Source: an uncultured Chloroflexia bacterium
Lineage (GTDB): Bacteria > Chloroflexota > Limnocylindria > Limnocylindrales > CSP1-4
Length of the DNA: 64,000 nt
NCBI GenBank assembly: GCA_963819655.1
Contig: CAWFXA010000003.1
Location: forward strand, 192,149-256,148
Direction of reading: 5' to 3'
Shown here piece after piece: positions 53,955 through 64,000 of this stretch; positions within the stretch are counted from its first letter, which is position 1; the number at the start of each line of letters is the position of its first letter. Under the pieces are notes generated by a model, which saw only the letters and a program-made list of their open reading frames with translations, searched no databases and was not told the DNA's origin. The position numbers and the translations under genes were made by a program.

Positions 53955-54146
53955 CGATGCAGCGTAACGGTCCCGCGAGGCGCGCAGGGTGTCGGGTGGG
54001 GTGTCTGCCATTCACACGCTGCTATCATCCGAGCCGACCCGGTCGCGCTCGTGACCGCCCGATCCCCGAGCTGGAGCAGCATCCTGGACGCCCAACCGCC
54101 GCCCCGGTCGGTACCACCCCGGGGCCTGCGCTCATCGATCGTGTCG

Positions 54147-54899
54147 ATGCGCGATTCCGCGCTTCGACTCGTCAAGGCGCACATCGATCTTGCGAGGGCA
54201 GAAGCCGCCGCGATCGCCGGCGAGGTCCAGAAGGTCGCGGCGCTCATCGGGATCGCGATCGGCATCGTCCTGTTCGCGATCATCCTGGCGGTCATCGGCA
54301 TGTCGCTCTTCCTGGGCGAATGGATCCTCGGCTCGCTCGGCTGGGGCGTGCTGCATGGCGTCCAGCTGTTCGTGGCGATCGCGATCGCCTCCGTCCTCCT
54401 CGCCCTGGGCGTGAGCGGCGGGCGGATCGCCGGGGCCTTCGTGATCGCGCTCGTGATCGGCGTCGTCGTCGGCGTGGTGATGGCGCTCGGCCTGCCGAAC
54501 CAGGCCTACACCTCGATCGGTGGATCGGCACTCCCCGGGATCGAGCCGGGCGTGCGTCCGCTGTTCGTCGGCGTACTCATCGTGGGCGGCTTCGGCCTGC
54601 TGGTCGGGCTCATCGCCGCGTTCCGTGGCGGCGGGGCGGGAGCCGCCATCGGCGGGCTCCTCGTCGGCGTCGTGATCGGCGCCATCTCGGCGGTGGATTC
54701 CGGGCCGCAGGTCGGCGCCGGGATCGGCATCGCAGTGGGCTACCTCATGTGGATCGGCCTGATGGTCCTTGACGTGTCGCGATCCGGCATCGACATCGAG
54801 GCCTTCACGGCGCGCTTCTATCCGACCCAGACCATCGAGACAAGCAAGGAGACGCTCGAGTGGCTGAAGAGCAAGATGCCGCCCGGGACCGGGTCCTAG
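54147..54899 (+). CDS. putative holin-X-like (phage holin family 3_6) membrane protein
   Basis: MRDSALRLVKAHIDLARAEAAAIAGEVQKVAALIGIAIGIVLFA followed by several Gly/Val-rich TM helices. The ORF-track start at 54051 adds a low-complexity extension. Confidence 0.45.
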   Translation: MRDSALRLVKAHIDLARAEAAAIAGEVQKVAALIGIAIGIVLFAIILAVIGMSLFLGEWILGSLGWGVLHGVQLFVAIAIASVLLALGVSGGRIAGAFVIALVIGVVVGVVMALGLPNQAYTSIGGSALPGIEPGVRPLFVGVLIVGGFGLLVGLIAAFRGGGAGAAIGGLLVGVVIGAISAVDSGPQVGAGIGIAVGYLMWIGLMVLDVSRSGIDIEAFTARFYPTQTIETSKETLEWLKSKMPPGTGS

Positions 54900-55522
54900 A
54901 GGCGCGAGCGGCCCTCGACCAGGAGCTGACGACGCTCCAGGGGTCGGTGCGCGCCGCGGTCGACATCCCCGCGAAGGTTCGCCAGAGCCCCGTGAAGGTC
55001 GCCGCGGTCGCGGCTGGGATCGGTTTCGTGCTGCTGCGCGGGCCCCAGCGGCTGTGGTCCGCCTTCCGGCGAGCGGTGTTCGGGCGGCGAGCGCCGATGC
55101 CCAAGCGCATGCTGCCCGACGAGATCGAGAAGACCCTCGCCAAGATGGGTGACGACGGCGAGAAGGTGCGCGGAACGCTCGAGCGGGATTTCGCCGAGTA
55201 CGTCAAGCAAGCCCAGAAGAGGCGCGGGATCGGCCTCATTCCCATCGTTGTGCTCGCCTTCGCTCGGCCGATGCTTGCCCTTGCCGGCCGGCGCCTGACG
55301 GAATACCTGTTCTCGCAGAACCCGGAGGGCACCGGCACCCGGTTCGACGAGCTGCGAGCGAAGGCCGCCTTGAAGGGCGAGGAGGCCAGGGTCCAGGCGG
55401 GCGCCAAGGTCGACGAGGCGGCGGCGACGGCAGAGCGGGCCGCCGACCCCGCCAAGGAACGCGTGGACGGAGGGCGCGACGAGGGTCCGCCGTCGGGCCA
55501 GGGATCACCGACCAGGGTCTGA
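54860..55522 (+). CDS. DUF3618-like coiled-coil/TM protein
   Basis: N-terminal helical region EEQDAARDRVLEARAALDQELTTLQGSV followed by TM segment VAAVAAGIGFVLL. Overlaps the previous gene 3' end. Confidence 0.4.
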   Translation: MAEEQDAARDRVLEARAALDQELTTLQGSVRAAVDIPAKVRQSPVKVAAVAAGIGFVLLRGPQRLWSAFRRAVFGRRAPMPKRMLPDEIEKTLAKMGDDGEKVRGTLERDFAEYVKQAQKRRGIGLIPIVVLAFARPMLALAGRRLTEYLFSQNPEGTGTRFDELRAKAALKGEEARVQAGAKVDEAAATAERAADPAKERVDGGRDEGPPSGQGSPTRV

Positions 55523-55767: not shown

Positions 55768-57213
55768 ATGCAGATCACCCGTACTCCCGCCCCCAAGTCG
55801 ACCGTCCAGCTCCAGATCGAGCTGCCCCCGGATCGACTCGACCGTGCCCTCGACGCGGCGGTTCGCGCCCTCGCGCGCCGGACGCGCATCCCCGGCTTCC
55901 GCCCAGGCAAGGCGCCGCGCCCCGTCCTGGAGCGGCACCTCGGTCCCGGCGTCGTCATGGACGAGGCCGTCGATCACCTCATGCAGGACGCCTATCGCGA
56001 GGCGCTCGTCAAGGAGGACATCCTCCCGCTGACGAACGCCGACGTCGAAGTCGTCCAGGCCGAGGAGGGCAAGCCGCTGATCTTCAAGGCGACAGTGCCG
56101 GTGCGGCCGGAGGTGAAGCTCGGCGACTACCGGGACTTCAACTTCACGCCCGAGGTCGAGACGATCGACGACGCCCGGGTCGACCAGGTCGTCGAGGAGC
56201 TACGCGACCAGAACGCGACGCTGGCAGCTGTCGAGGACCGTGGCGCGAAGGACGGCGACTATGCGGTCATCTCGTTCGTCGGCACCCGCGACGGCCAGCC
56301 CTTCGATGGCGGGACGTCCGAGCGGATGCCGCTCATCCTCGGGCAGGAGCGCCTGATCCCGGGCTTCGAGACGAACCTGATCGGGCTCAAGGTCGGTGCC
56401 ACCACCGAATTCGATATCACGTTCCCGGACGACTACCCGGAGCCGGAGATGGCCGGCAAGTCAGCCCACTTCAGCGTCGAGCTCAAGGAGCTCCGCGAGA
56501 AGATCCTGCCGGACCTCGACGAGGACTTCCTGGCCAGCCTCGGGAGTTTCGAGTCGATCGACGCACTCAAGGCCGACGTCAAGACACGGCTCGAGGGAAA
56601 TGCCATCGACCGCGCCCGCCACCAGTTCGCCGACCGGATCATCGAATACGCAGTCGCCAACGCGACCGTCGAGCTACCCGAAGTGCTGATCGACCAGGAG
56701 GTCGAGGTCATGCACGACGAGTTCAAGGGCTCGCTCGCGCGCCAGGGCATCAGCGAGGAGGCCTATCTCAAGGCGGTCGACAAGACCGCCGACGACCTCC
56801 ATGCCGAGTTCCGGCCGAATGCGGAGCGACGGGCCAAGACCTTGCTCGTCCTCTCGAAGATCGCCGATACCGAGAATCTCACGGTGCCCGACGCCGATGT
56901 CGAGGCCGAGGTGGCCCAGGGACGGGAGCGCTACGCTGGCGATGCGCGCCTCCAGGAGTACTTCGAATCGGAGCGCGGCCGCGCGTTCATCCGGAGCACC
57001 CTGCGACGGAGCCGTGTCGTGGAGCGACTCATCGACGAGTGGCTGGCCGCCCACCCCGACCACCAGCCACTCCCACACCTCGAGGACGCGCCGGGGTCGG
57101 CGGTCGCGGACGGGGGGGCCCAGGCCAACGCGGCGATCGGGGCGACCGACCCAGGCACCGTCATCGACAGCCGAGACAGCACACCGGTCGACGAGCCAGC
57201 CACGGCGGGCTGA
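55768..57213 (+). CDS. tig: trigger factor
   Basis: N-terminal ribosome-binding region IPGFRPGKAPRPVLE (GFRxGxxP signature), PPIase and C-terminal domains. 481 aa. Confidence 0.9.
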   Translation: MQITRTPAPKSTVQLQIELPPDRLDRALDAAVRALARRTRIPGFRPGKAPRPVLERHLGPGVVMDEAVDHLMQDAYREALVKEDILPLTNADVEVVQAEEGKPLIFKATVPVRPEVKLGDYRDFNFTPEVETIDDARVDQVVEELRDQNATLAAVEDRGAKDGDYAVISFVGTRDGQPFDGGTSERMPLILGQERLIPGFETNLIGLKVGATTEFDITFPDDYPEPEMAGKSAHFSVELKELREKILPDLDEDFLASLGSFESIDALKADVKTRLEGNAIDRARHQFADRIIEYAVANATVELPEVLIDQEVEVMHDEFKGSLARQGISEEAYLKAVDKTADDLHAEFRPNAERRAKTLLVLSKIADTENLTVPDADVEAEVAQGRERYAGDARLQEYFESERGRAFIRSTLRRSRVVERLIDEWLAAHPDHQPLPHLEDAPGSAVADGGAQANAAIGATDPGTVIDSRDSTPVDEPATAG

Positions 57214-57261: not shown

Positions 57262-57954
<693 letters not shown>

Positions 57955-57973: not shown

Positions 57974-59284
<1,311 letters not shown>

Positions 59285-59376
59285 TCGGGGAGCGCCGCGT
59301 GACGGCGCCGCCTTTTGGGCAGCGCCCTCCGCGGGCCGTTGGCGGCGCCGATTCTGATCCCACCAGACGTTTCGGG

Positions 59377-59403
59377 GCTCCGAGGGCCATATGCCCTCGG
59401 AGC
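59377..59403. terminator. near-perfect 27-bp palindrome/hairpin (10-13 bp GC-rich stem around CATATG) in the clpX-ftsZ convergent spacer; candidate bidirectional terminator or protein-binding site
   Basis: GCTCCGAGGG-CCATATG-CCCTCGGAGC, 93 nt after the clpX stop. No U-tract. Confidence 0.3.
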
Positions 59404-59721
59404 ACTCTGCCAGCCACGCTCGTGGCGGTCCATCCACGCACCGGATCACGCGGCCGACGACCGTTATGCGGCCCGCTGGCCTGGATCGTCTGCTCCCAGC
59501 AGAAATGTGGGAGTCATGGGTCGGTGACGAGCGTGGGCGCGGGTCCGCCCCGCACTCGGGACGCGATCATCCGGTCGCGGCGCGAGCGCGAGGCTGCCGC
59601 TCCTGGAGGCGACGCGTCGACGCGTTCGGTCGGGCGCCACGGGAGGTCAGGGTACGCGAGGCCTTCCTCGCCGAGTCGCCCTCGAACCAGACGATCTCGA
59701 CGCAAAGGCCTGACTGCCGCG

Positions 59722-60975
59722 TCAGCCGGTCCGAGACGTCGGCGGTCGATGCTTCCGCAGGAATGTTGGCAGTTCGAGGTTCTCGTCCTCGATCGGCGCA
59801 CGCCGCTCCACCGCGGGTTGTTCGTCCTTGACGCCCGGACGCGCTGACGGCACCTGAGCGTGCGGCGTGACGCGCTCGGCCTGCCTGCGGAGACGTGCGG
59901 TCAGCGTCGCCGGCGACACCGACTCCGCAGCACGATGGCCGTCGAGGCCCGTGGCGATCAGCGTGATCATGACCTCGCCCTCGGCGACGTCGCCGACGCT
60001 CGCCCCGAAGATCACGTTGGCGCGGCTGTCGGCCGTCGACCTGATCTCGTCGGCCGCCCGCCGGACCTCGCGCAACTTCAAGTCCGCGGGCCCGGACACA
60101 TGGAACAGGATGCCGCGGGCGCCCTGGATGCTGGCCTCGAGGAGCGGGCTCGAGATGGCCTGCCGGGCGGCGTCCACCGCGCGGTCCTCGCCGGTCCCGC
60201 GACCCAGGCCGATCAGCGCCGGCCCCGCGTCGCGCATGATCGCGCGCACATCGGCGAAGTCGAGGTTGATGAGGCCGGGCGCCGTGAGCAGATCGACGAT
60301 GCCCTGGACGGCACGGAGCAGCACGCCATCGACGACGCTGAATGCCTCGAGGGCGGATGCGTCCTCCTGGACGACCTCGCTGACCCGGTCGTTGGAGACC
60401 GTGATCAGGGCGTCCACCTCGGACGCCAGCCGCGCGGACGCCTCGTCGGCGATCTCGCGACGCTGTGCGCCCTCGAAGTCGAAAGGCTTGGTGACGACCG
60501 CGATCGTCAGCGCGCCCTGCTCTCGCGCCTTGGCCGCCACGATCGGGGCGGCGCCCGAGCCGGTGCCCCCACCGAGGCCTGCCGTCACGAACACGAGATC
60601 GGCCGACGCGAGCGCCCTGCCGATCTTCTCGGCATCCTCCTCGGCCGACTTCCGGCCGACGTCCGGATCGCCGCCCGAGCCGAGCCCGTGGGTGATCGCG
60701 TCGCCGATCCTGATGCGAGTCGGCGCGAGGGACTGGCGGAGAGCCTGGGCGTCGGTGTTGCACACGACGAATTCGACGCCGGGGATCCCGGCATCGACCA
60801 TCCGGTCGACGGCGTTGCCGCCGCCCCCGCCGACGCCCACGACGAGGATGCCGCGCGTCTCCGGGTGGCGTCCCCGTCGGAACAAGCCGGGGATCGAGAC
60901 TGCGACGCGGGCGACCACAAGTCCGGCGAGGACGAGGATGACGAGCTGGACGAGGGTCTGGGCCGACTGGTCCAC
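59722..60975 (-). CDS. ftsZ: FtsZ-family tubulin-like GTPase, paralogue located outside a dcw cluster, with predicted N-terminal TM helix if the GTG at 60975 is used
   Basis: Tubulin signature VGVGGGGGNAVDRMV, T7 loop NLDFADVRAIM, C-terminal conserved peptide ENLELPTFLRK. N-terminal 27 residues TLVQLVILVLAGLVVARVAVSIPGLF are hydrophobic. TAGACT hexamer 6 nt upstream of GTG suggests a leaderless transcript. An internal in-frame TTG (LFRRGRHPETRGILVVG) would give a canonical soluble N-terminus. Confidence 0.85.
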   Translation of the reverse strand: MDQSAQTLVQLVILVLAGLVVARVAVSIPGLFRRGRHPETRGILVVGVGGGGGNAVDRMVDAGIPGVEFVVCNTDAQALRQSLAPTRIRIGDAITHGLGSGGDPDVGRKSAEEDAEKIGRALASADLVFVTAGLGGGTGSGAAPIVAAKAREQGALTIAVVTKPFDFEGAQRREIADEASARLASEVDALITVSNDRVSEVVQEDASALEAFSVVDGVLLRAVQGIVDLLTAPGLINLDFADVRAIMRDAGPALIGLGRGTGEDRAVDAARQAISSPLLEASIQGARGILFHVSGPADLKLREVRRAADEIRSTADSRANVIFGASVGDVAEGEVMITLIATGLDGHRAAESVSPATLTARLRRQAERVTPHAQVPSARPGVKDEQPAVERRAPIEDENLELPTFLRKHRPPTSRTG

Positions 60976-61089
60976 GTCCCGAGTCTAGCCACACATCGCA
61001 AGTCCCAAGCACGACAGACGTCCTGCATCGCATGGTCCCTTCGTCGCATTCGATGCCGTCCGGACCCGGCAAGAGCCCGTGCTACACTC

Positions 61090-61340
61090 GCCGCCGTCAC
61101 GGCTGTGACAGGAGAGGAGTAGCGTCGGGACGGCCCCGAGCGAGCGTGGGACGGTGGGAGCCGCGCGGTACGGGCCGACGCGAAAAGTCGCTCCCGAGCC
61201 ATGACGGCTGACGCCCGATACCGCGTCGAGAGGGCACCGGGGATCTGCGCCGCGCGATGAGCGCGTTCGCACCGGGCGCCGAACCAGCAGGTGGTACCAC
61301 GACCCGTTCGTCCGCTGGACGAGCGGGGTTTCTGTTTTCG
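61090..61340 (+). ncRNA. candidate T-box riboswitch leader of valS (valine specifier GUC), terminator/antiterminator type
   Basis: Stem-I-like elements GAGAGGAGUAGCG (61111-61123). Candidate specifier region CGAAAAGUCGC (GUC at 61187-61189). T-box-like core AGGUGGUACCACG at 61289-61301 (consensus GGGUGGNACCGCG, with the UGGU discriminator partner matching tRNA-Val discriminator A). This is immediately followed by a strong intrinsic terminator. Confidence 0.45.
61302..61338 (+). terminator. rho-independent terminator (12-bp stem, GCU loop, U-tract) 20 nt upstream of valS start
   Basis: ACCCGUUCGUCC-gcu-GGACGAGCGGGG followed by UUUCUGUUUU. Confidence 0.6.
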
Positions 61341-61358
61341 AAACCAACGAGGCATGCG

Positions 61359-64000
61359 ATGACCGACACGGCCGAGCCCGAGACGGCCGAGCCAGAGCTC
61401 CCGAAGGCCTATCGACCGGCGGACGTCGAGGGGCCGATCTACGAGCGCTGGCTGGCCGCGGACGTCTTCGCCCCGGACGGCGCCGGCTCGACGGCCGACC
61501 CCGCGCTGCCCCCATTCACGATCATCCAGCCACCGCCCAACGTGACGGGTTCGCTCCACCTGGGCCATGCCCAGCGGACCGCGGTGGAGGACCTCATGAT
61601 CCGGCACGCCCGCATGCGTGGGCATCCGACGCTGTTCCTGCCCGGTCTCGACCACGCCAGCATCGCTGCCCAGTTCGTCCTCGACGGGATCATCGCGAAG
61701 GAGGGCGAGAGCCGGCAGTCCCTGGGCCGCGAGCGCTACCTCGAGCGGATGCGCGAGTTCTCCGAGTCGACCAAGCCGATCATGCTCGGCCAGCAGCGAC
61801 GTGTCGGGGCGTCGGCCGACTGGGGGCGGCTGCGCTACACGATGGACGAGGTGTCGGCGAAGGCCGTCCGTGTCGCATTCGAGCGGCTGTACCGCGACGG
61901 GCTCGCCTACCGGACCGAGGCCATGGTGAATTGGTGCCCGGGCTGTCGGACCAGCGTCAGCGACCTCGAGGTGGTGTCGTCACCTGAGACCGGGACGCTC
62001 TGGTCGATCCGCTATCACCTCATCGACGAGTCGACCGGGGAACCCGATCCGGACGAGACGATCACCGTGGCGACCACGCGTCCCGAGACGATCCTCGGCG
62101 ACGTCGCGGTGGCCGTCCATCCCGAGGACGATCGCTATCGGGCCCTGGTCGGACGCCGCGCCCGGGTCCCGTTCGTCGAGCGCGACGTTCCGATCATCGC
62201 GGACGACGTCGTCGATCCGGCGTTCGGTACCGGCGCGGTGAAGATCACGCCTGCACATGACCCGGACGACTACGCCACCGGCAAGCGTCACGGGCTGCCT
62301 GCGCCGACGATCCTCGCCGACGACGCGACCATCACCAACACGGGCACGCGGTTCGACGGCCTCGATCGCTACGAGGCCCGCCGCCGGATCGTGGCCGAGC
62401 TCGCGGAGAACGGCGATCTCGCCGATGAGCGCCCGCACGAGATGGTCCTCGGCCGCTGCCAGCGCAGCAACGACGTCCTCGAGCCGCGGCTCAAGACGCA
62501 GTGGTTCATCCGCACCGGGCCGCTCGCGGCCCGGGCGCTTGACGCGACCCGGTCCGGGCGCACGCGGATCGTGCCCGAAAGGTTCGAGAAGACCTGGGAA
62601 CACTGGCTGACCAACATCCGTGACTGGAACGTGTCGCGCCAGCTGTGGTGGGGCCACCGCATCCCTGCCTGGTATTGCCCGGACGGCCACGTCACGGTCT
62701 CGTCCGATCCAGGTGGCCCGACCGCATGCGAGGTCTGCGGGCGCCCGGCCCCGGAGCTCCAGCAGGACCCGGACATCTTCGACACGTGGTTCAGCTCCGG
62801 CCTGTGGCCGTTCTCGACCCTGGGCTGGCCGGACGACACGCCGGACTACCGGACCTACTACCCGACATCGGTCATGGAGACGGGCTACGACATCATCTTC
62901 TTCTGGGTCGCCCGGATGATGATGCTCGGCCTGCATCTGACCGACCGGGAGCCCTTCCACACGATCTACCTCTCGGGCCTGATCCGCGACCCGGAAGGCC
63001 AGAAGATGTCGAAGACGAAGGGCAACGTCGTCGACCCGCTCGGGGTCATCGACGAGACCGGTGCCGATGCCCTCCGCTTCGCCGTCATCCATGGCACGGC
63101 GCCCGGACAGGATCAGCGGTTCGGCCGCACCAAGCTCGAGAACGCGCGCAACTTCGCCAACAAGCTGTGGAACGCGACACGCTTCGTCATCGGCGCCCGT
63201 CCGGACACCATCCCGTCGGGGGCCGAGCGGCGGCTGCCGTCTGAAGCCGACCTGGGGCCCGCCGAGCGCTGGATCCTGTCACGCGCCAGTGCGACGGTCG
63301 AGGCCGTCGACGCCGCCATGGCCGATCACGCCTTCGGCGAGGTCACGCGGCTCCTGTACGACGCGATCTGGAATGAGTTCTGCGACTGGGGCGTGGAGCT
63401 CGCGAAGGTCCGCCTCGCCGACGAGTCTTCGACAGCCGCGGAGCGCGAGGCGACCTGGTGGGCGCTGGTCGAGGCGCTCGACACATACCTGCGGCTGCTC
63501 CACCCGGTCATGCCGTTCGTGACGGAGACACTGTGGGGGTCGATCCCGCACCGCGCCAGCGACCCGGAGCTGCTGATCGTCGCGCGCTGGCCGGCGCCGA
63601 CCGGTCGCGACGAGCGGCTCGAGCGGGAGGTCGACTCGATCCTGGAACTCGTCCGTGGCCTGCGGAATGCGCGCGCCGAGGCGCAGGTGGAGGCCGGGAC
63701 ATGGCTCGCGACCGAGGTCGTCGTGCCTCAAGCCCTCGGCGCGACGTTCGAGGCGCTGCGCCCCGCGATCGAGCGACTCGCGCGCGCCCGGCCGCTCGAG
63801 CGGCGACTGACGCGCGAGGCGCTCGGGGAGGGGAGGGCATCGACGGACGGTGCCCTGACGGTCATCGCGGGCGAGCTCGAGGCGCTCGCCCACCGCCCGG
63901 AGACCGCGTCCGACCCCGCGGCCCGCGATCTGGAGCGGGCACGGCTCCAGCGAGAGCTCGACGACGCGCGCGGATGGCTGGAAGCGGCGCGGGCGCGCCT
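61359..64000 (+). CDS. valS: valine--tRNA ligase (3' end outside window)
   Basis: HIGH motif SLHLGHA, KMSKS motif KMSKTKGNV, editing and tRNA-binding domains. CGAGG RBS before ATG at 61359. Open to the end of the window. Confidence 0.9.
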   Translation, partial: MTDTAEPETAEPELPKAYRPADVEGPIYERWLAADVFAPDGAGSTADPALPPFTIIQPPPNVTGSLHLGHAQRTAVEDLMIRHARMRGHPTLFLPGLDHASIAAQFVLDGIIAKEGESRQSLGRERYLERMREFSESTKPIMLGQQRRVGASADWGRLRYTMDEVSAKAVRVAFERLYRDGLAYRTEAMVNWCPGCRTSVSDLEVVSSPETGTLWSIRYHLIDESTGEPDPDETITVATTRPETILGDVAVAVHPEDDRYRALVGRRARVPFVERDVPIIADDVVDPAFGTGAVKITPAHDPDDYATGKRHGLPAPTILADDATITNTGTRFDGLDRYEARRRIVAELAENGDLADERPHEMVLGRCQRSNDVLEPRLKTQWFIRTGPLAARALDATRSGRTRIVPERFEKTWEHWLTNIRDWNVSRQLWWGHRIPAWYCPDGHVTVSSDPGGPTACEVCGRPAPELQQDPDIFDTWFSSGLWPFSTLGWPDDTPDYRTYYPTSVMETGYDIIFFWVARMMMLGLHLTDREPFHTIYLSGLIRDPEGQKMSKTKGNVVDPLGVIDETGADALRFAVIHGTAPGQDQRFGRTKLENARNFANKLWNATRFVIGARPDTIPSGAERRLPSEADLGPAERWILSRASATVEAVDAAMADHAFGEVTRLLYDAIWNEFCDWGVELAKVRLADESSTAAEREATWWALVEALDTYLRLLHPVMPFVTETLWGSIPHRASDPELLIVARWPAPTGRDERLEREVDSILELVRGLRNARAEAQVEAGTWLATEVVVPQALGATFEALRPAIERLARARPLERRLTREALGEGRASTDGALTVIAGELEALAHRPETASDPAARDLERARLQRELDDARGWLEAARAR

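Follow-up and report, generated by a model that had tools for sequence, protein, structure and literature searches.

The gene that we call ftsZ-TM, which lies on the reverse strand between clpX and valS (Table 1), encodes a genuine FtsZ, and the comparative evidence leads us to think that its product is probably a second, membrane-integral FtsZ of the Limnocylindria (Chloroflexota). In the mechanism that we propose, a conserved TAGACT -10 element would drive a leaderless mRNA that starts at the GTG, translation from this GTG would add a 42-residue N-terminal extension, and residues 8-30 of this extension would cross the membrane once.

An FtsZ outside the dcw cluster

First, the FtsZ identity of the protein is secure. 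The whole protein scores 374.7 bits against the TIGR00065 ftsZ equivalog (cut-off 295.2), Pfam Tubulin matches residues 43-202 (151.7 bits) and FtsZ_C residues 251-345 (100.3 bits), and among solved structures B. subtilis FtsZ is the best match (PDB 2vam; 335 bits, alignment over residues 42-409). The tubulin signature GGGTGSG (residues 135-141) and the T7 loop NLDFAD (residues 237-242) are invariant across 55 family members. At the C-terminus, ELPTFLRK (residues 401-408) aligns with the B. subtilis tail DIPTFLRN, with P403 invariant in the family and conservation of 90% or more at each of F405, L406 and R407. The preliminary description of this DNA, which had credited the protein with all FtsZ hallmarks including this peptide, is thus borne out. 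The C-terminal peptide of canonical FtsZ is a docking motif for partners, FtsA and others among them. From its sequence, the FtsZ-TM core is predicted to keep every element for GTP-dependent polymerisation together with an FtsA-type docking peptide; what the protein does in the cell we can only infer. Its core is about 52% identical to that of canonical B. subtilis FtsZ, and the two have the signature, the T7 loop, a disordered linker and the docking peptide in common. Because of this identity and the equivalog score above cut-off, the protein is unlikely to belong to the FtsZ-like families FtsZl1/FtsZl2, which are described as having a tubulin-superfamily core that has diverged from true FtsZ (PMC2875224).

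The surroundings of the gene are not those of a division operon. Its placement outside the dcw cluster, on the strand opposite to clpX and valS, was recognised from the start and is confirmed by the Pfam assignments of the neighbours and by tblastn, which found no dcw gene in the window (the whole stretch of 64,000 nucleotides that was analysed) or in 35 FtsZ-TM loci. The order valS/ftsZ-TM/clpX/clpP/tig is conserved in three further loci (L082, L083 and L089), and the family as a whole occupies at least five different neighbourhoods, never in a dcw context and never beside ftsA.

Table 1. Features of the ftsZ-TM locus, in positions of the 64-kb window.
Feature	Position	Strand	Basis or remark
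tig	55768-57213	+	Pfam
clpP	57262-57954	+	Pfam
clpX, convergent downstream neighbour of ftsZ-TM	57974..59284	+	Pfam zf-C4_ClpX and AAA_2
ftsZ-TM coding sequence	59722..60975	-	ORF list; 417 codons plus TGA stop; GTG start
Conserved C-terminal peptide ENLELPTFLRK, residues 398-408	59752..59784	-	Conservation and alignment with the B. subtilis tail
Disordered C-terminal linker, residues 346-397	59785..59940	-	pLDDT <50; length and sequence vary across the family
FtsZ globular core, residues 43-345 (GTPase domain and C-terminal domain)	59941..60849	-	Pfam/TIGR00065, invariant columns, confident AlphaFold2 fold, 2vam alignment
N-terminal extension, codons 1-42	60850..60975	-	Conserved in the family; canonical FtsZ lacks it
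Predicted transmembrane helix, residues 8-30 (LVQLVILVLAGLVVARVAVSIPG)	60886..60954	-	Hydropathy, charge, AlphaFold2
GTG start codon, proposed +1 of a leaderless mRNA	60973..60975	-	GTG in 26/26 distinct orthologous loci
-10-like hexamer TAGACT	60982..60987	-	Exactly 6 nt ahead of GTG; the TAG in it closes the frame
Two conserved upstream boxes, GACGAAGGGACCA (-70..-58) and cAGGACGnnnTTTCGTG-like (-50..-35)	61010..61045	-	Comparison of loci
valS, divergent upstream neighbour, runs off the window	61359..64000	+	Pfam tRNA-synt_1 and Anticodon_1; translation

The N-terminal extension and its start

Second, translation of the 42-residue extension from the GTG is strongly supported by the comparison of loci. 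The extension follows the consensus MDPxAQTFxQLVVxVLAGLLxxRILxxxPGWxRRGRRPExRSILVV, in which R23, R36, P38, E39 and R41 are invariant at the amino-acid level, their codons varying synonymously. About 115 of the 120 best homologues and all 117 of a second homologue set have this hydrophobic extension; at least 230 homologue clusters carry it, down to about 60% identity, and extension-bearing representatives occur in several 50%-identity clusters, so that conservation begins neither at the core nor at the TTG discussed below. The coding-like codon usage noted earlier for the extension also stands, its GC by codon position (0.80/0.46/0.88, against 0.74/0.50/0.93 in the core) showing a periodicity that is absent upstream of the GTG. 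The extension has a pN/pS of 0.58, lower than that of the linker (0.83) and higher than that of the core (0.38); dN/dS for this gene is semi-quantitative only, since GC3 biases the synonymous sites, which are close to saturation.

The preliminary description had allowed for a different start, at a TTG ahead of the core. On such a reading the extension would be an annotation artefact, and initiation at this TTG, codon 31 (60883-60885; 12 codons ahead of the first core strand), or later, would yield an ordinary soluble FtsZ. The TTG does occur in the window and in 4 of the 26 distinct loci, but the codon is TGG (Trp) in 21 of them, whereas the GTG is kept in every one, and of codons 2 to 44 none could act as a start in more than 27% of these loci. 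Amino-acid conservation over synonymous variation, the coding-type GC3 and the lack of any frameshift or stop within the extension in the 26 loci likewise speak against it. The comparison has effectively refuted the artefact reading, which we consider scarcely conceivable.

The region ahead of the GTG is consistent with the leaderless start that had been proposed from the TAGACT 6 nt upstream. Leaderless genes are recognised here by an ATG or GTG that serves as +1 and has a TANNNT ending some 6-7 nt ahead of it, with neither a Shine-Dalgarno sequence nor room for a leader, and the arrangement at ftsZ-TM is TAGACT-N6-GTG. The hexamer reads TAGACT in 21, TACACT in one, TAGAGT in one and CAGACT in two of 25 distinct loci, with TAGGAT in a further one (L120); TANNNT is present in 24 of the 26, the exceptions being the two with CAGACT. 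It always stands at -12..-7, and the fixed 6-nt distance is kept even where other upstream sequence has diverged: the spacer is only ‘cgggac’, positions -6..-1 are unconserved save for CG at -6 and -5, and positions -13..-37 flanking the hexamer are not conserved. Since the TAG of the hexamer closes the frame upstream, the GTG is the first possible start. We saw no Shine-Dalgarno sequence ahead of it, and this, with the TANNNT at 6 nt and the in-frame TAG, fits a leaderless mRNA, so that the G of the GTG is the most likely first base of the transcript, with the TAGACT driving transcription; the spacing is conserved and the transcription start predicted. A generic sigma-70 scan returned no two-hexamer promoter upstream of the gene, nor do the aligned loci contain a conserved TTGACA-like -35 at 16-19 nt spacing. 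The two conserved boxes farther upstream, possibly a regulator site in place of a -35 element, recur in almost every locus, even in L081, L084 and L120, whose upstream neighbour is not valS. In the window, TANNNT-N5-7-RTG has nine matches in 7 of 43 ORFs, eight of them in six ORFs other than ftsZ-TM; this is about a rough chance estimate, and the count is therefore uninformative on the frequency of leaderless genes here. As a comparative case of leaderless initiation at a GTG in Chloroflexota, ftsZ-TM would be a clean one.

Third, the extension is predicted to anchor the protein in the membrane. The Kyte-Doolittle maximum over 19 residues is 2.63 for FtsZ-TM and 2.27-3.17 for 130 family members, compared with 0.79 for canonical FtsZ and a transmembrane threshold of about 1.6 for a 19-mer. 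With a mean hydropathy of 2.24 and a hydrophobic moment of 0.12, the helix is uniformly apolar and not amphipathic. Net charge is -1 over residues 2-7 in 117 of the 130 sequences and +3/+4 over residues 31-42 in 120, and AlphaFold2 draws a single helix from residue 3 to 34 (pLDDT 84-94 over residues 1-20), with a low-confidence tether at residues 30-40. The hydrophobic helix noted earlier for the GTG-started protein holds up in both the hydropathy and the AlphaFold2 model, and the membrane-anchored FtsZ that it had suggested is supported as a prediction. The predicted topology is N-out/C-in, with an acidic tail of seven residues outside, the Arg-rich PGW-RRGRRPE-R segment inside and about 10 residues between membrane and core; given this single span, the FtsZ core would hang only that far below the cytoplasmic face, tethered by its N-terminus. 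We also considered a signal peptide and discarded it, since the N-region lacks positive charge, which comes only after the helix, and export of an FtsZ core would be senseless.

Could the helix instead lie in the plane of the membrane, form a re-entrant anchor, or serve protein-protein contacts (oligomerisation) and so not span the bilayer at all? The invariant R23 sits inside the hydrophobic stretch, and no more than some 12 apolar residues run without a break between it and the near-invariant Q10; a position-independent Hessa sum over the best 19-mer, a crude measure, is borderline (+0.49 kcal/mol for FtsZ-TM, family mean -0.30); and AlphaFold2 is unable to tell the cases apart. We nevertheless consider a non-spanning helix quite improbable in view of 23 consecutive, mostly apolar residues with Kyte-Doolittle values of 2.3-3.2 in all 130 members, the low moment, the textbook positive-inside asymmetry and a PGW motif at the expected interface. 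If the helix spans the bilayer, as we favor, the conservation of its polar residues Q10 and R23 suggests a specific contact within the membrane.

Relation to the canonical FtsZ of Limnocylindria

Fourth, how does FtsZ-TM relate to the division FtsZ of its own lineage? A canonical soluble FtsZ, which begins MPLRSDSENFALIRVIGVGGGGSN and ends DDLEIPSFLRRK (its sequence is also quoted as MPLRSDSENFALI...), is encoded in the same order within a mraY-murD-ftsW-murG-murB-ddl-ftsQ-DUF1290-ftsA...ftsZ-ylmE cluster; a contig scan with full FtsZ-TM, whose hits were dominated by motifs common to all FtsZ, gave this protein, and no FtsZ-TM locus, among the matches listed. It is the closest relative of FtsZ-TM, with about 64% core identity, a sister position in the tree and the same type of C-terminal peptide. 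It differs from FtsZ-TM in its short soluble N-terminus, in adjoining ftsQ-DUF1290-ftsA before ylmE, and in its far stronger conservation (81% or more over the best 120 clusters). In the tree, the TM clade sits on a long stem, sister to a tight canonical Limnocylindrales clade, and at comparable genome divergence (ValS 88%, Ddl 88%) FtsZ-TM is 79.5% identical compared with 93.4% for canonical FtsZ. By these sequence measures the FtsZ-TM clade is a fast-evolving sister of canonical FtsZ, with a rate about three times higher. Such a pattern would follow from duplication of the dcw-cluster ftsZ within Limnocylindria, exit of one copy from the cluster and its accelerated evolution, after which the two proteins would coexist.

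The word ‘paralogue’, used in the preliminary description together with the suggestion to look for another ftsZ in a dcw cluster, therefore stands at the level of the lineage: a dcw-cluster ftsZ exists in the same order, and tree and rates fit a duplication. At the level of the single genome it does not yet stand, as none of the loci and protein accessions compared shows a genome or contig with both types. Four FtsZ-TM proteins (HET9757502, HEV8280588, HET9083283 and HET8785115) all fall outside the MAG ranges of the canonical-protein accessions compared (HEY75..., HEY77..., HET7029047, and the HSL, HLX and HEX series). Assembly ERZ25039541 holds both types (L081 and L086), in loci of 69.1% and 71.4% GC, and is possibly a whole metagenome. 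The Limnocylindria are an uncultured class of soil Chloroflexota, met with repeatedly in public assemblies of soil metagenomes, of which many contain it.

It is conceivable, then, that FtsZ-TM is the sole FtsZ of its genome, a Limnocylindrales sub-lineage having relocated its division FtsZ away from the dcw genes and given it, by fusion, a membrane anchor that replaces or supplements tethering by FtsA. The lack of a genome with both genes would be accounted for, two sister species groups would explain the tree equally well, and all catalytic motifs and the C-terminal peptide are kept. However, a threefold faster evolution would be unusual for a sole essential FtsZ; the gene occurs in at least five unrelated neighbourhoods away from ftsA; NCBI labels the two types alike, as Candidatus Limnocylindrales; and a threefold rate, applied to the span of the canonical clade (at least 81%), predicts roughly the depth that the TM clade has (60% identity). 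On balance we find a sole FtsZ unlikely and retain a second FtsZ alongside the canonical one as the preferred reading.

Predicted membrane tethering and possible roles

To our knowledge, all characterised FtsZ proteins are soluble and reach the membrane via the adaptors FtsA, ZipA or SepF or, rarely, via a peripheral amphipathic helix. FtsZ-TM departs from canonical bacterial FtsZ in its 42-residue extension with a predicted transmembrane helix, its non-dcw location, its apparently leaderless mRNA and its faster evolution. The literature that we searched, limited in coverage and giving absence of evidence only, contained no natural transmembrane FtsZ, and a conserved N-terminal membrane-spanning helix on FtsZ appears undescribed there. 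A natural parallel is the Mycoplasma group 1E FtsZ with its built-in amphipathic helix, N- or C-terminal (N-terminal in ten species); an amphipathic helix has also been proposed for archaeal and Atribacteria FtsZ, and the C-terminal motif of chloroplast FtsZ1 belongs with these (bioRxiv 10.1101/2023.08.29.555414). Such FtsZs attach themselves to the membrane with no need of an adaptor, as FtsZ-TM would. Amphipathic-helix FtsZs bind peripherally, however, whereas the FtsZ-TM helix is uniformly hydrophobic and long enough to span a bilayer, and the group 1E proteins lack the FtsA-binding peptide that FtsZ-TM keeps; a high-moment amphipathic helix and loss of the peptide, the two marks of that group, are both absent from FtsZ-TM.

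At the level of the lineage, the pairing of two diverged FtsZ proteins recalls the FtsZ1/FtsZ2 pairs of chloroplasts and archaea, each made up of two bona fide paralogues between which the work within a single ring may be shared (PMC3494859; bioRxiv 10.1101/2020.06.04.133736). Unlike FtsZ-TM with its predicted helix, none of those paralogues is known to have a transmembrane helix.

By analogy with canonical FtsZ, FtsZ-TM may act at the division site, self-anchored, where it would co-assemble with or nucleate canonical filaments while its tail still binds FtsA. How the position and length of a tether set the direction and size of membrane bending is debated, and has so far been tested on engineered constructs only. 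Among these, mts-FtsZ bears its tether, like FtsZ-TM, on the N-terminal side of the core, and N-terminally tethered E. coli FtsZ is reported to form ‘inside-out Z rings’ on the outside of liposomes (Osawa & Erickson 2011, as summarised in PMC5797765). The mts-FtsZ protein is an artificial construct that carries an amphipathic sequence from MinD and has no C-terminal peptide, whereas FtsZ-TM is natural and conserved, has a predicted integral anchor and keeps its tail. An N-terminal tether is perhaps ill-suited to inward constriction because of that outcome, and this possible geometric misfit weakens a Z-ring role for FtsZ-TM.

Alternatively, FtsZ-TM may be membrane-anchored but no component of the Z ring, bending the membrane in the opposite direction for some other purpose, as a remodeller or a scaffold, for instance to shape the envelope or to form vesicles or compartments. 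The reversed side of ring assembly reported for an N-terminal tether (PMC5797765), a very short tether of about 10 residues, the location outside dcw with its own conserved promoter and upstream boxes, and the existence of more distant, N-terminally hydrophobic FtsZs without a C-terminal peptide (P0280, P0283 and P0289) are all in keeping with such a role. Yet the FtsA-type docking peptide is strictly kept in the FtsZ-TM clade, which argues for partners shared with the division FtsZ, and a flexible linker of 55 residues would be long enough to contact the membrane even from the far side of the filament; a role apart from the Z ring strikes us as rather unlikely, and a self-anchored protein at the division site remains our preferred model.

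More tentatively still than the existence of a second FtsZ, we would raise the idea, doubtful at present, that Limnocylindria run a two-FtsZ system with a natural ‘inside-out’ integral partner, which either nucleates and anchors the canonical Z ring in the bilayer or bends the membrane the opposite way. If this is true, the filament would be tethered by its N-terminal face, whereas every FtsZ characterised so far uses the opposite one. As a natural, conserved family of at least 230 clusters with a predicted N-side transmembrane anchor about 10 residues from the core, FtsZ-TM would offer a ready test of tether models, and it points to what may be an unrecognised arrangement for division or membrane remodelling in Chloroflexota.

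An FtsZ with a conserved, translated N-terminal extension

The 417-residue product of the GTG-initiated ORF, hereafter FtsZ-TM for its predicted N-terminal transmembrane helix, is by sequence a genuine FtsZ whose catalytic and docking motifs are intact. It scores 374.7 bits against the NCBI ftsZ equivalog TIGR00065 (cut-off 295.2), and its Pfam Tubulin (residues 43-202, 151.7 bits) and FtsZ_C (251-345, 100.3 bits) domains are both present. GGGTGSG (135-141) and the T7-loop motif NLDFAD (237-242) are intact here and invariant among 55 relatives. The nearest solved structure, B. subtilis FtsZ (2vam, 335 bits), aligns over residues 42-409 and takes in the C-terminal peptide, DENLELPTFLRKH against DDTLDIPTFLRNR in B. 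subtilis; within the FtsZ-TM clade this peptide is strictly kept. The preliminary description had thus been right to credit the protein with all FtsZ hallmarks, peptide included, and databases label such proteins simply "cell division protein FtsZ".

That description had left room for a TTG, now codon 31, as an alternative start giving a soluble FtsZ, so that the hydrophobic stretch ahead of it would be an annotation artefact. Among 36 loci compared as DNA (the window, long-read contigs L081-L084, L089 and L120, and 30 metagenome contigs retrieved by extension-only alignment), 26 are distinct, and in all 26 codon 1 is GTG. Codon 31 reads TGG (Trp) in 21 of them, TTG in four and CTG in one, and none of codons 2 to 44 could serve as a start in more than 27% of the loci. 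Variation at the invariant residues of the extension (residues 1-42) is of a synonymous kind, R23 being written CGC, CGG, CGA or AGG, R36 and R41 with four Arg codons each, and P38 as CCG or CCC. GC by codon position (0.80/0.46/0.88) resembles the core and not the upstream DNA, in agreement with the coding-type usage noted earlier, and Nei-Gojobori pN/pS is 0.58 in the extension, 0.38 in the core and 0.83 in the disordered linker, ratios that are rough because synonymous sites are near saturation. On this combined start-codon, synonymous, GC and pN/pS evidence, a start at the TTG is effectively excluded, and the extension is shown by its sequence pattern to be translated and conserved.

Comparison with orthologues agrees. 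In a search of 5.8 billion proteins, about 115 of the best 120 matches, down to 60% overall identity, open with the extension (consensus MDPxAQTFxQLVVxVLAGLLxxRILxxxPGWxRRGRRPExRSILVV; R23, R36, P38, E39 and R41 invariant). A second search seeded with the divergent member P0278 added at least 117 clusters, and all 117 listed have an N-terminal hydrophobic stretch. A profile of residues 1-61, run against 1.84 billion representatives, gave strong matches to about ten 50%-identity clusters, besides a few remoter FtsZs whose N-termini are likewise hydrophobic. One protein, P0101 (JGI contig, 1,624 bp), has a core nested in the FtsZ-TM clade beside P0046 (79.7% identical to the window protein) and a short, canonical-looking N-terminus, MIFEFEESAAQNARLKVVGVGGGGGN; a secondary loss of the anchor, or a chimera assembled across the conserved G-box, may account for this.

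Predicted membrane insertion and leaderless start

The hydrophobic helix proposed earlier is borne out by calculation, with insertion into the membrane a prediction. The 19-residue Kyte-Doolittle mean is 2.63 over residues 8-26, and ranges from 2.27 to 3.17 over 130 FtsZ-TM members, against 0.79 for 129 canonical FtsZs (the soluble Limnocylindria type). With a hydrophobic moment of 0.12 over residues 8-30, the helix is not amphipathic. AlphaFold2, given a 55-sequence alignment, returns a single continuous helix at 3-34 (pLDDT 84-94 over residues 1-20), low confidence at 30-40, then a confident FtsZ core and a disordered linker. Net charge is -1 over residues 2-7 in 117 of 130 sequences and +3 or +4 over residues 31-42 in 120 of 130, from which the positive-inside rule predicts a single N-out/C-in transmembrane helix, with the core hanging about 10 residues beneath the membrane. 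Summed crudely on the Hessa scale, without regard to position, the insertion energy is borderline, at +0.49 kcal/mol (family mean -0.30). The apolar stretch holds the invariant R23 and a near-invariant Q10, which may snorkel or mark a specific intramembrane contact.

The frame is closed by a TAG three codons 5' of the GTG, itself part of the TAGACT hexamer that the preliminary description had placed 6 nt ahead of the start, as we find it. In an upstream alignment anchored at the GTG, positions -12 to -7 read TAGACT in 21 of 25 distinct loci, TACACT in one, TAGAGT in one and CAGACT in two, with L120, taken separately, reading TAGGAT (consensus cTAGACTCGnncnGTG). Positions -13 to -37 are unconserved, so the hexamer is under specific constraint. 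TANNNT ending 6 nt before RTG is the -10 element of leaderless transcripts, as established in Actinobacteria and Deinococcus. Here the TANNNT-N6-GTG arrangement is conserved across the aligned sequences and leaves no room for a Shine-Dalgarno sequence, and the mRNA is predicted to be leaderless, with its transcription start placed accordingly by sequence. No -35 hexamer at 16-19 nt spacing is conserved across these loci. Farther upstream lie two conserved boxes, GACGAAGGGACCA at -70 to -58 and a AGGACGnnnTTTCGTG-like element (AGGACG...TTTCGTG-like) at -50 to -35, which hold a partial ACGAA...TTCGT inverted repeat and accompany ftsZ-TM also where the upstream gene is not valS (L081, L084, L120); they may be a putative regulator binding site substituting for the -35 element.

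Gene neighbourhood and relation to the canonical FtsZ

Features in and around the ftsZ-TM locus (window coordinates)
Feature	Position	Strand	Remark
cinA			before the two membrane-like ORFs
Two overlapping membrane-like ORFs	54051-55522	+	282 and 220 aa; no Pfam match; first very hydrophobic
tRNA-Leu			between these ORFs and tig
tig, clpP, clpX		+	
Gap	59285-59721		437 nt between convergent clpX and ftsZ-TM 3' ends; no coding-like ORF
ftsZ-TM	59722-60975	-	GTG start
TAGACT hexamer	60982-60987	-	ends exactly 6 nt before GTG
Two conserved boxes	61010-61045	-	-70 to -35 of ftsZ-TM
Probable T-box-type leader	61074-61358	+	upstream of valS
Rfam T-box match	61096-61204		sub-threshold: 31.4 bits, E 1.2e-4, gathering score 93
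Terminator-like hairpin with T-run	61303-61337		upstream of valS
valS	from 61359	+	

The gene order is as first described, and the gene sits outside the dcw (mur/fts division) cluster: tblastn with a full Limnocylindria dcw cluster found no dcw gene in the 64-kb window. The valS/ftsZ-TM/clpX-clpP-tig order is shared by L082, L083 and L089 (78-93% identity), the ftsZ-TM genes of L084, L081 and L120 each have a different setting, unrelated to this one, and in none of these neighbourhoods does FtsZ-TM lie in a dcw cluster. Several local details accompany this arrangement. Counterparts of the two membrane-like ORFs (241 and 209 aa) occupy the same position in L082 and L083, likewise without Pfam hits; clpX and ftsZ-TM are just 26 nt apart in those two loci, and only short pieces of the 437-nt gap match L090. 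The non-coding stretch with the probable valS leader is about 85% identical across L082, L083, L091 and L093, a level of conservation equal to that of coding DNA.

A scan of species-representative genomes gave, among the matches listed, soluble FtsZs only, the best being L001-L006 (Candidatus Limnocylindria and Limnocylindrales MAGs), which all begin MPLRSDSENFALIRVIGVGGGGSN and end DDLEIPSFLRRK. Used as a query, one of these canonical FtsZs found at least 120 clusters, the 120 listed all at least 81% identical. On long-read contigs L085-L088 the canonical gene does belong to a dcw cluster, in the order mraY-murD-ftsW-murG-murB-ddl-ftsQ-DUF1290-ftsA-yjbQ-x-ftsZ-ylmE. The small DUF1290 gene there encodes 107 aa, a YjbQ-family gene and one or two unannotated opposite-strand ORFs separate ftsA from ftsZ, and ylmE (Ala_racemase_N) comes next.

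In a neighbour-joining tree (303-column core, without bootstrap), the FtsZ-TM clade is sister, on a long stem, to a tight canonical Limnocylindrales clade, with the canonical Limnocylindria sequences L003 and L005 basal. Core identity is 63.8% between canonical FtsZ and FtsZ-TM, 63.2% between canonical FtsZ and B. subtilis, and 52.2% between FtsZ-TM and B. subtilis. Between the window and L082, FtsZ-TM is 79.5% identical (ClpX 97.9%, ValS 88.0%, CinA 81.2%); between L085 and L087, canonical FtsZ is 93.4% identical (Ddl 87.9%, FtsA 95.1%). Judged by such identities at comparable genome divergence, FtsZ-TM changes at roughly three times the rate of canonical FtsZ. The pattern fits a gene duplicated within Limnocylindria, of which one copy then moved elsewhere and shifted in function.

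ENA assembly ERZ25039541, perhaps a whole metagenome, holds both types on separate contigs each above 1 Mb (L081 and L086), which differ by 2.3 points in GC. The earlier designation of the gene as a paralogue is borne out at the level of the lineage. As the two genes were not found together in any one genome, we regard coexistence with canonical FtsZ as quite probable, and FtsZ-TM as the sole FtsZ of a sub-lineage as rather unlikely.

Possible action and wider occurrence

FtsZ-TM would form polymers at the cytoplasmic side of the membrane that holds it, its tail would go on binding FtsA-type partners, and it would work at the division site alongside canonical FtsZ, providing an in-built anchor or nucleator. 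The chief competing view of its function turns on tether geometry: with a natural tether at the N-terminus, the membrane might be bent in the opposite direction and the protein be used for some other kind of remodelling. The analogy is with E. coli FtsZ, whose rings formed outside liposomes once an artificial tether was moved to the N-terminal side, as Osawa & Erickson (2011) are summarised in PMC5797765. Loss of the C-terminal peptide in more distant relatives makes this other route conceivable; its strict retention in the FtsZ-TM clade favours the division-ring reading.

Those relatives (P0280, P0283 and P0289), which come from the representative search, are FtsZs with a core identity of 50-57%. 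Their N-terminal hydrophobic helix is a different one (Kyte-Doolittle 2.4-3.0), and no FtsA-binding peptide can be recognised at their C-termini. A further protein, P0300, has the helix, but its core is 69.9% identical to the canonical Limnocylindria type and 62.1% identical to FtsZ-TM. Anchoring of FtsZ by its N-terminus may extend beyond the FtsZ-TM clade, or have had more than one origin.

FtsZ-TM is a family member by sequence that departs from it in being, as predicted, membrane-integral, and in lying outside dcw. The closest precedents are FtsZs that carry an amphipathic helix of their own in Mycoplasma group 1E, such a helix being proposed also for archaeal and Atribacteria FtsZ and chloroplast FtsZ1 (bioRxiv 10.1101/2023.08.29.555414). 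FtsZs of this kind bind peripherally, and those of Mycoplasma lack the FtsA-binding peptide, whereas FtsZ-TM has a helix that is apolar throughout and retains the peptide. Full-text searches of the literature covered found no natural transmembrane FtsZ. FtsZ-TM offers a natural test case for models of tether geometry, and gives a hint that this widespread, uncultured class has a two-FtsZ system.
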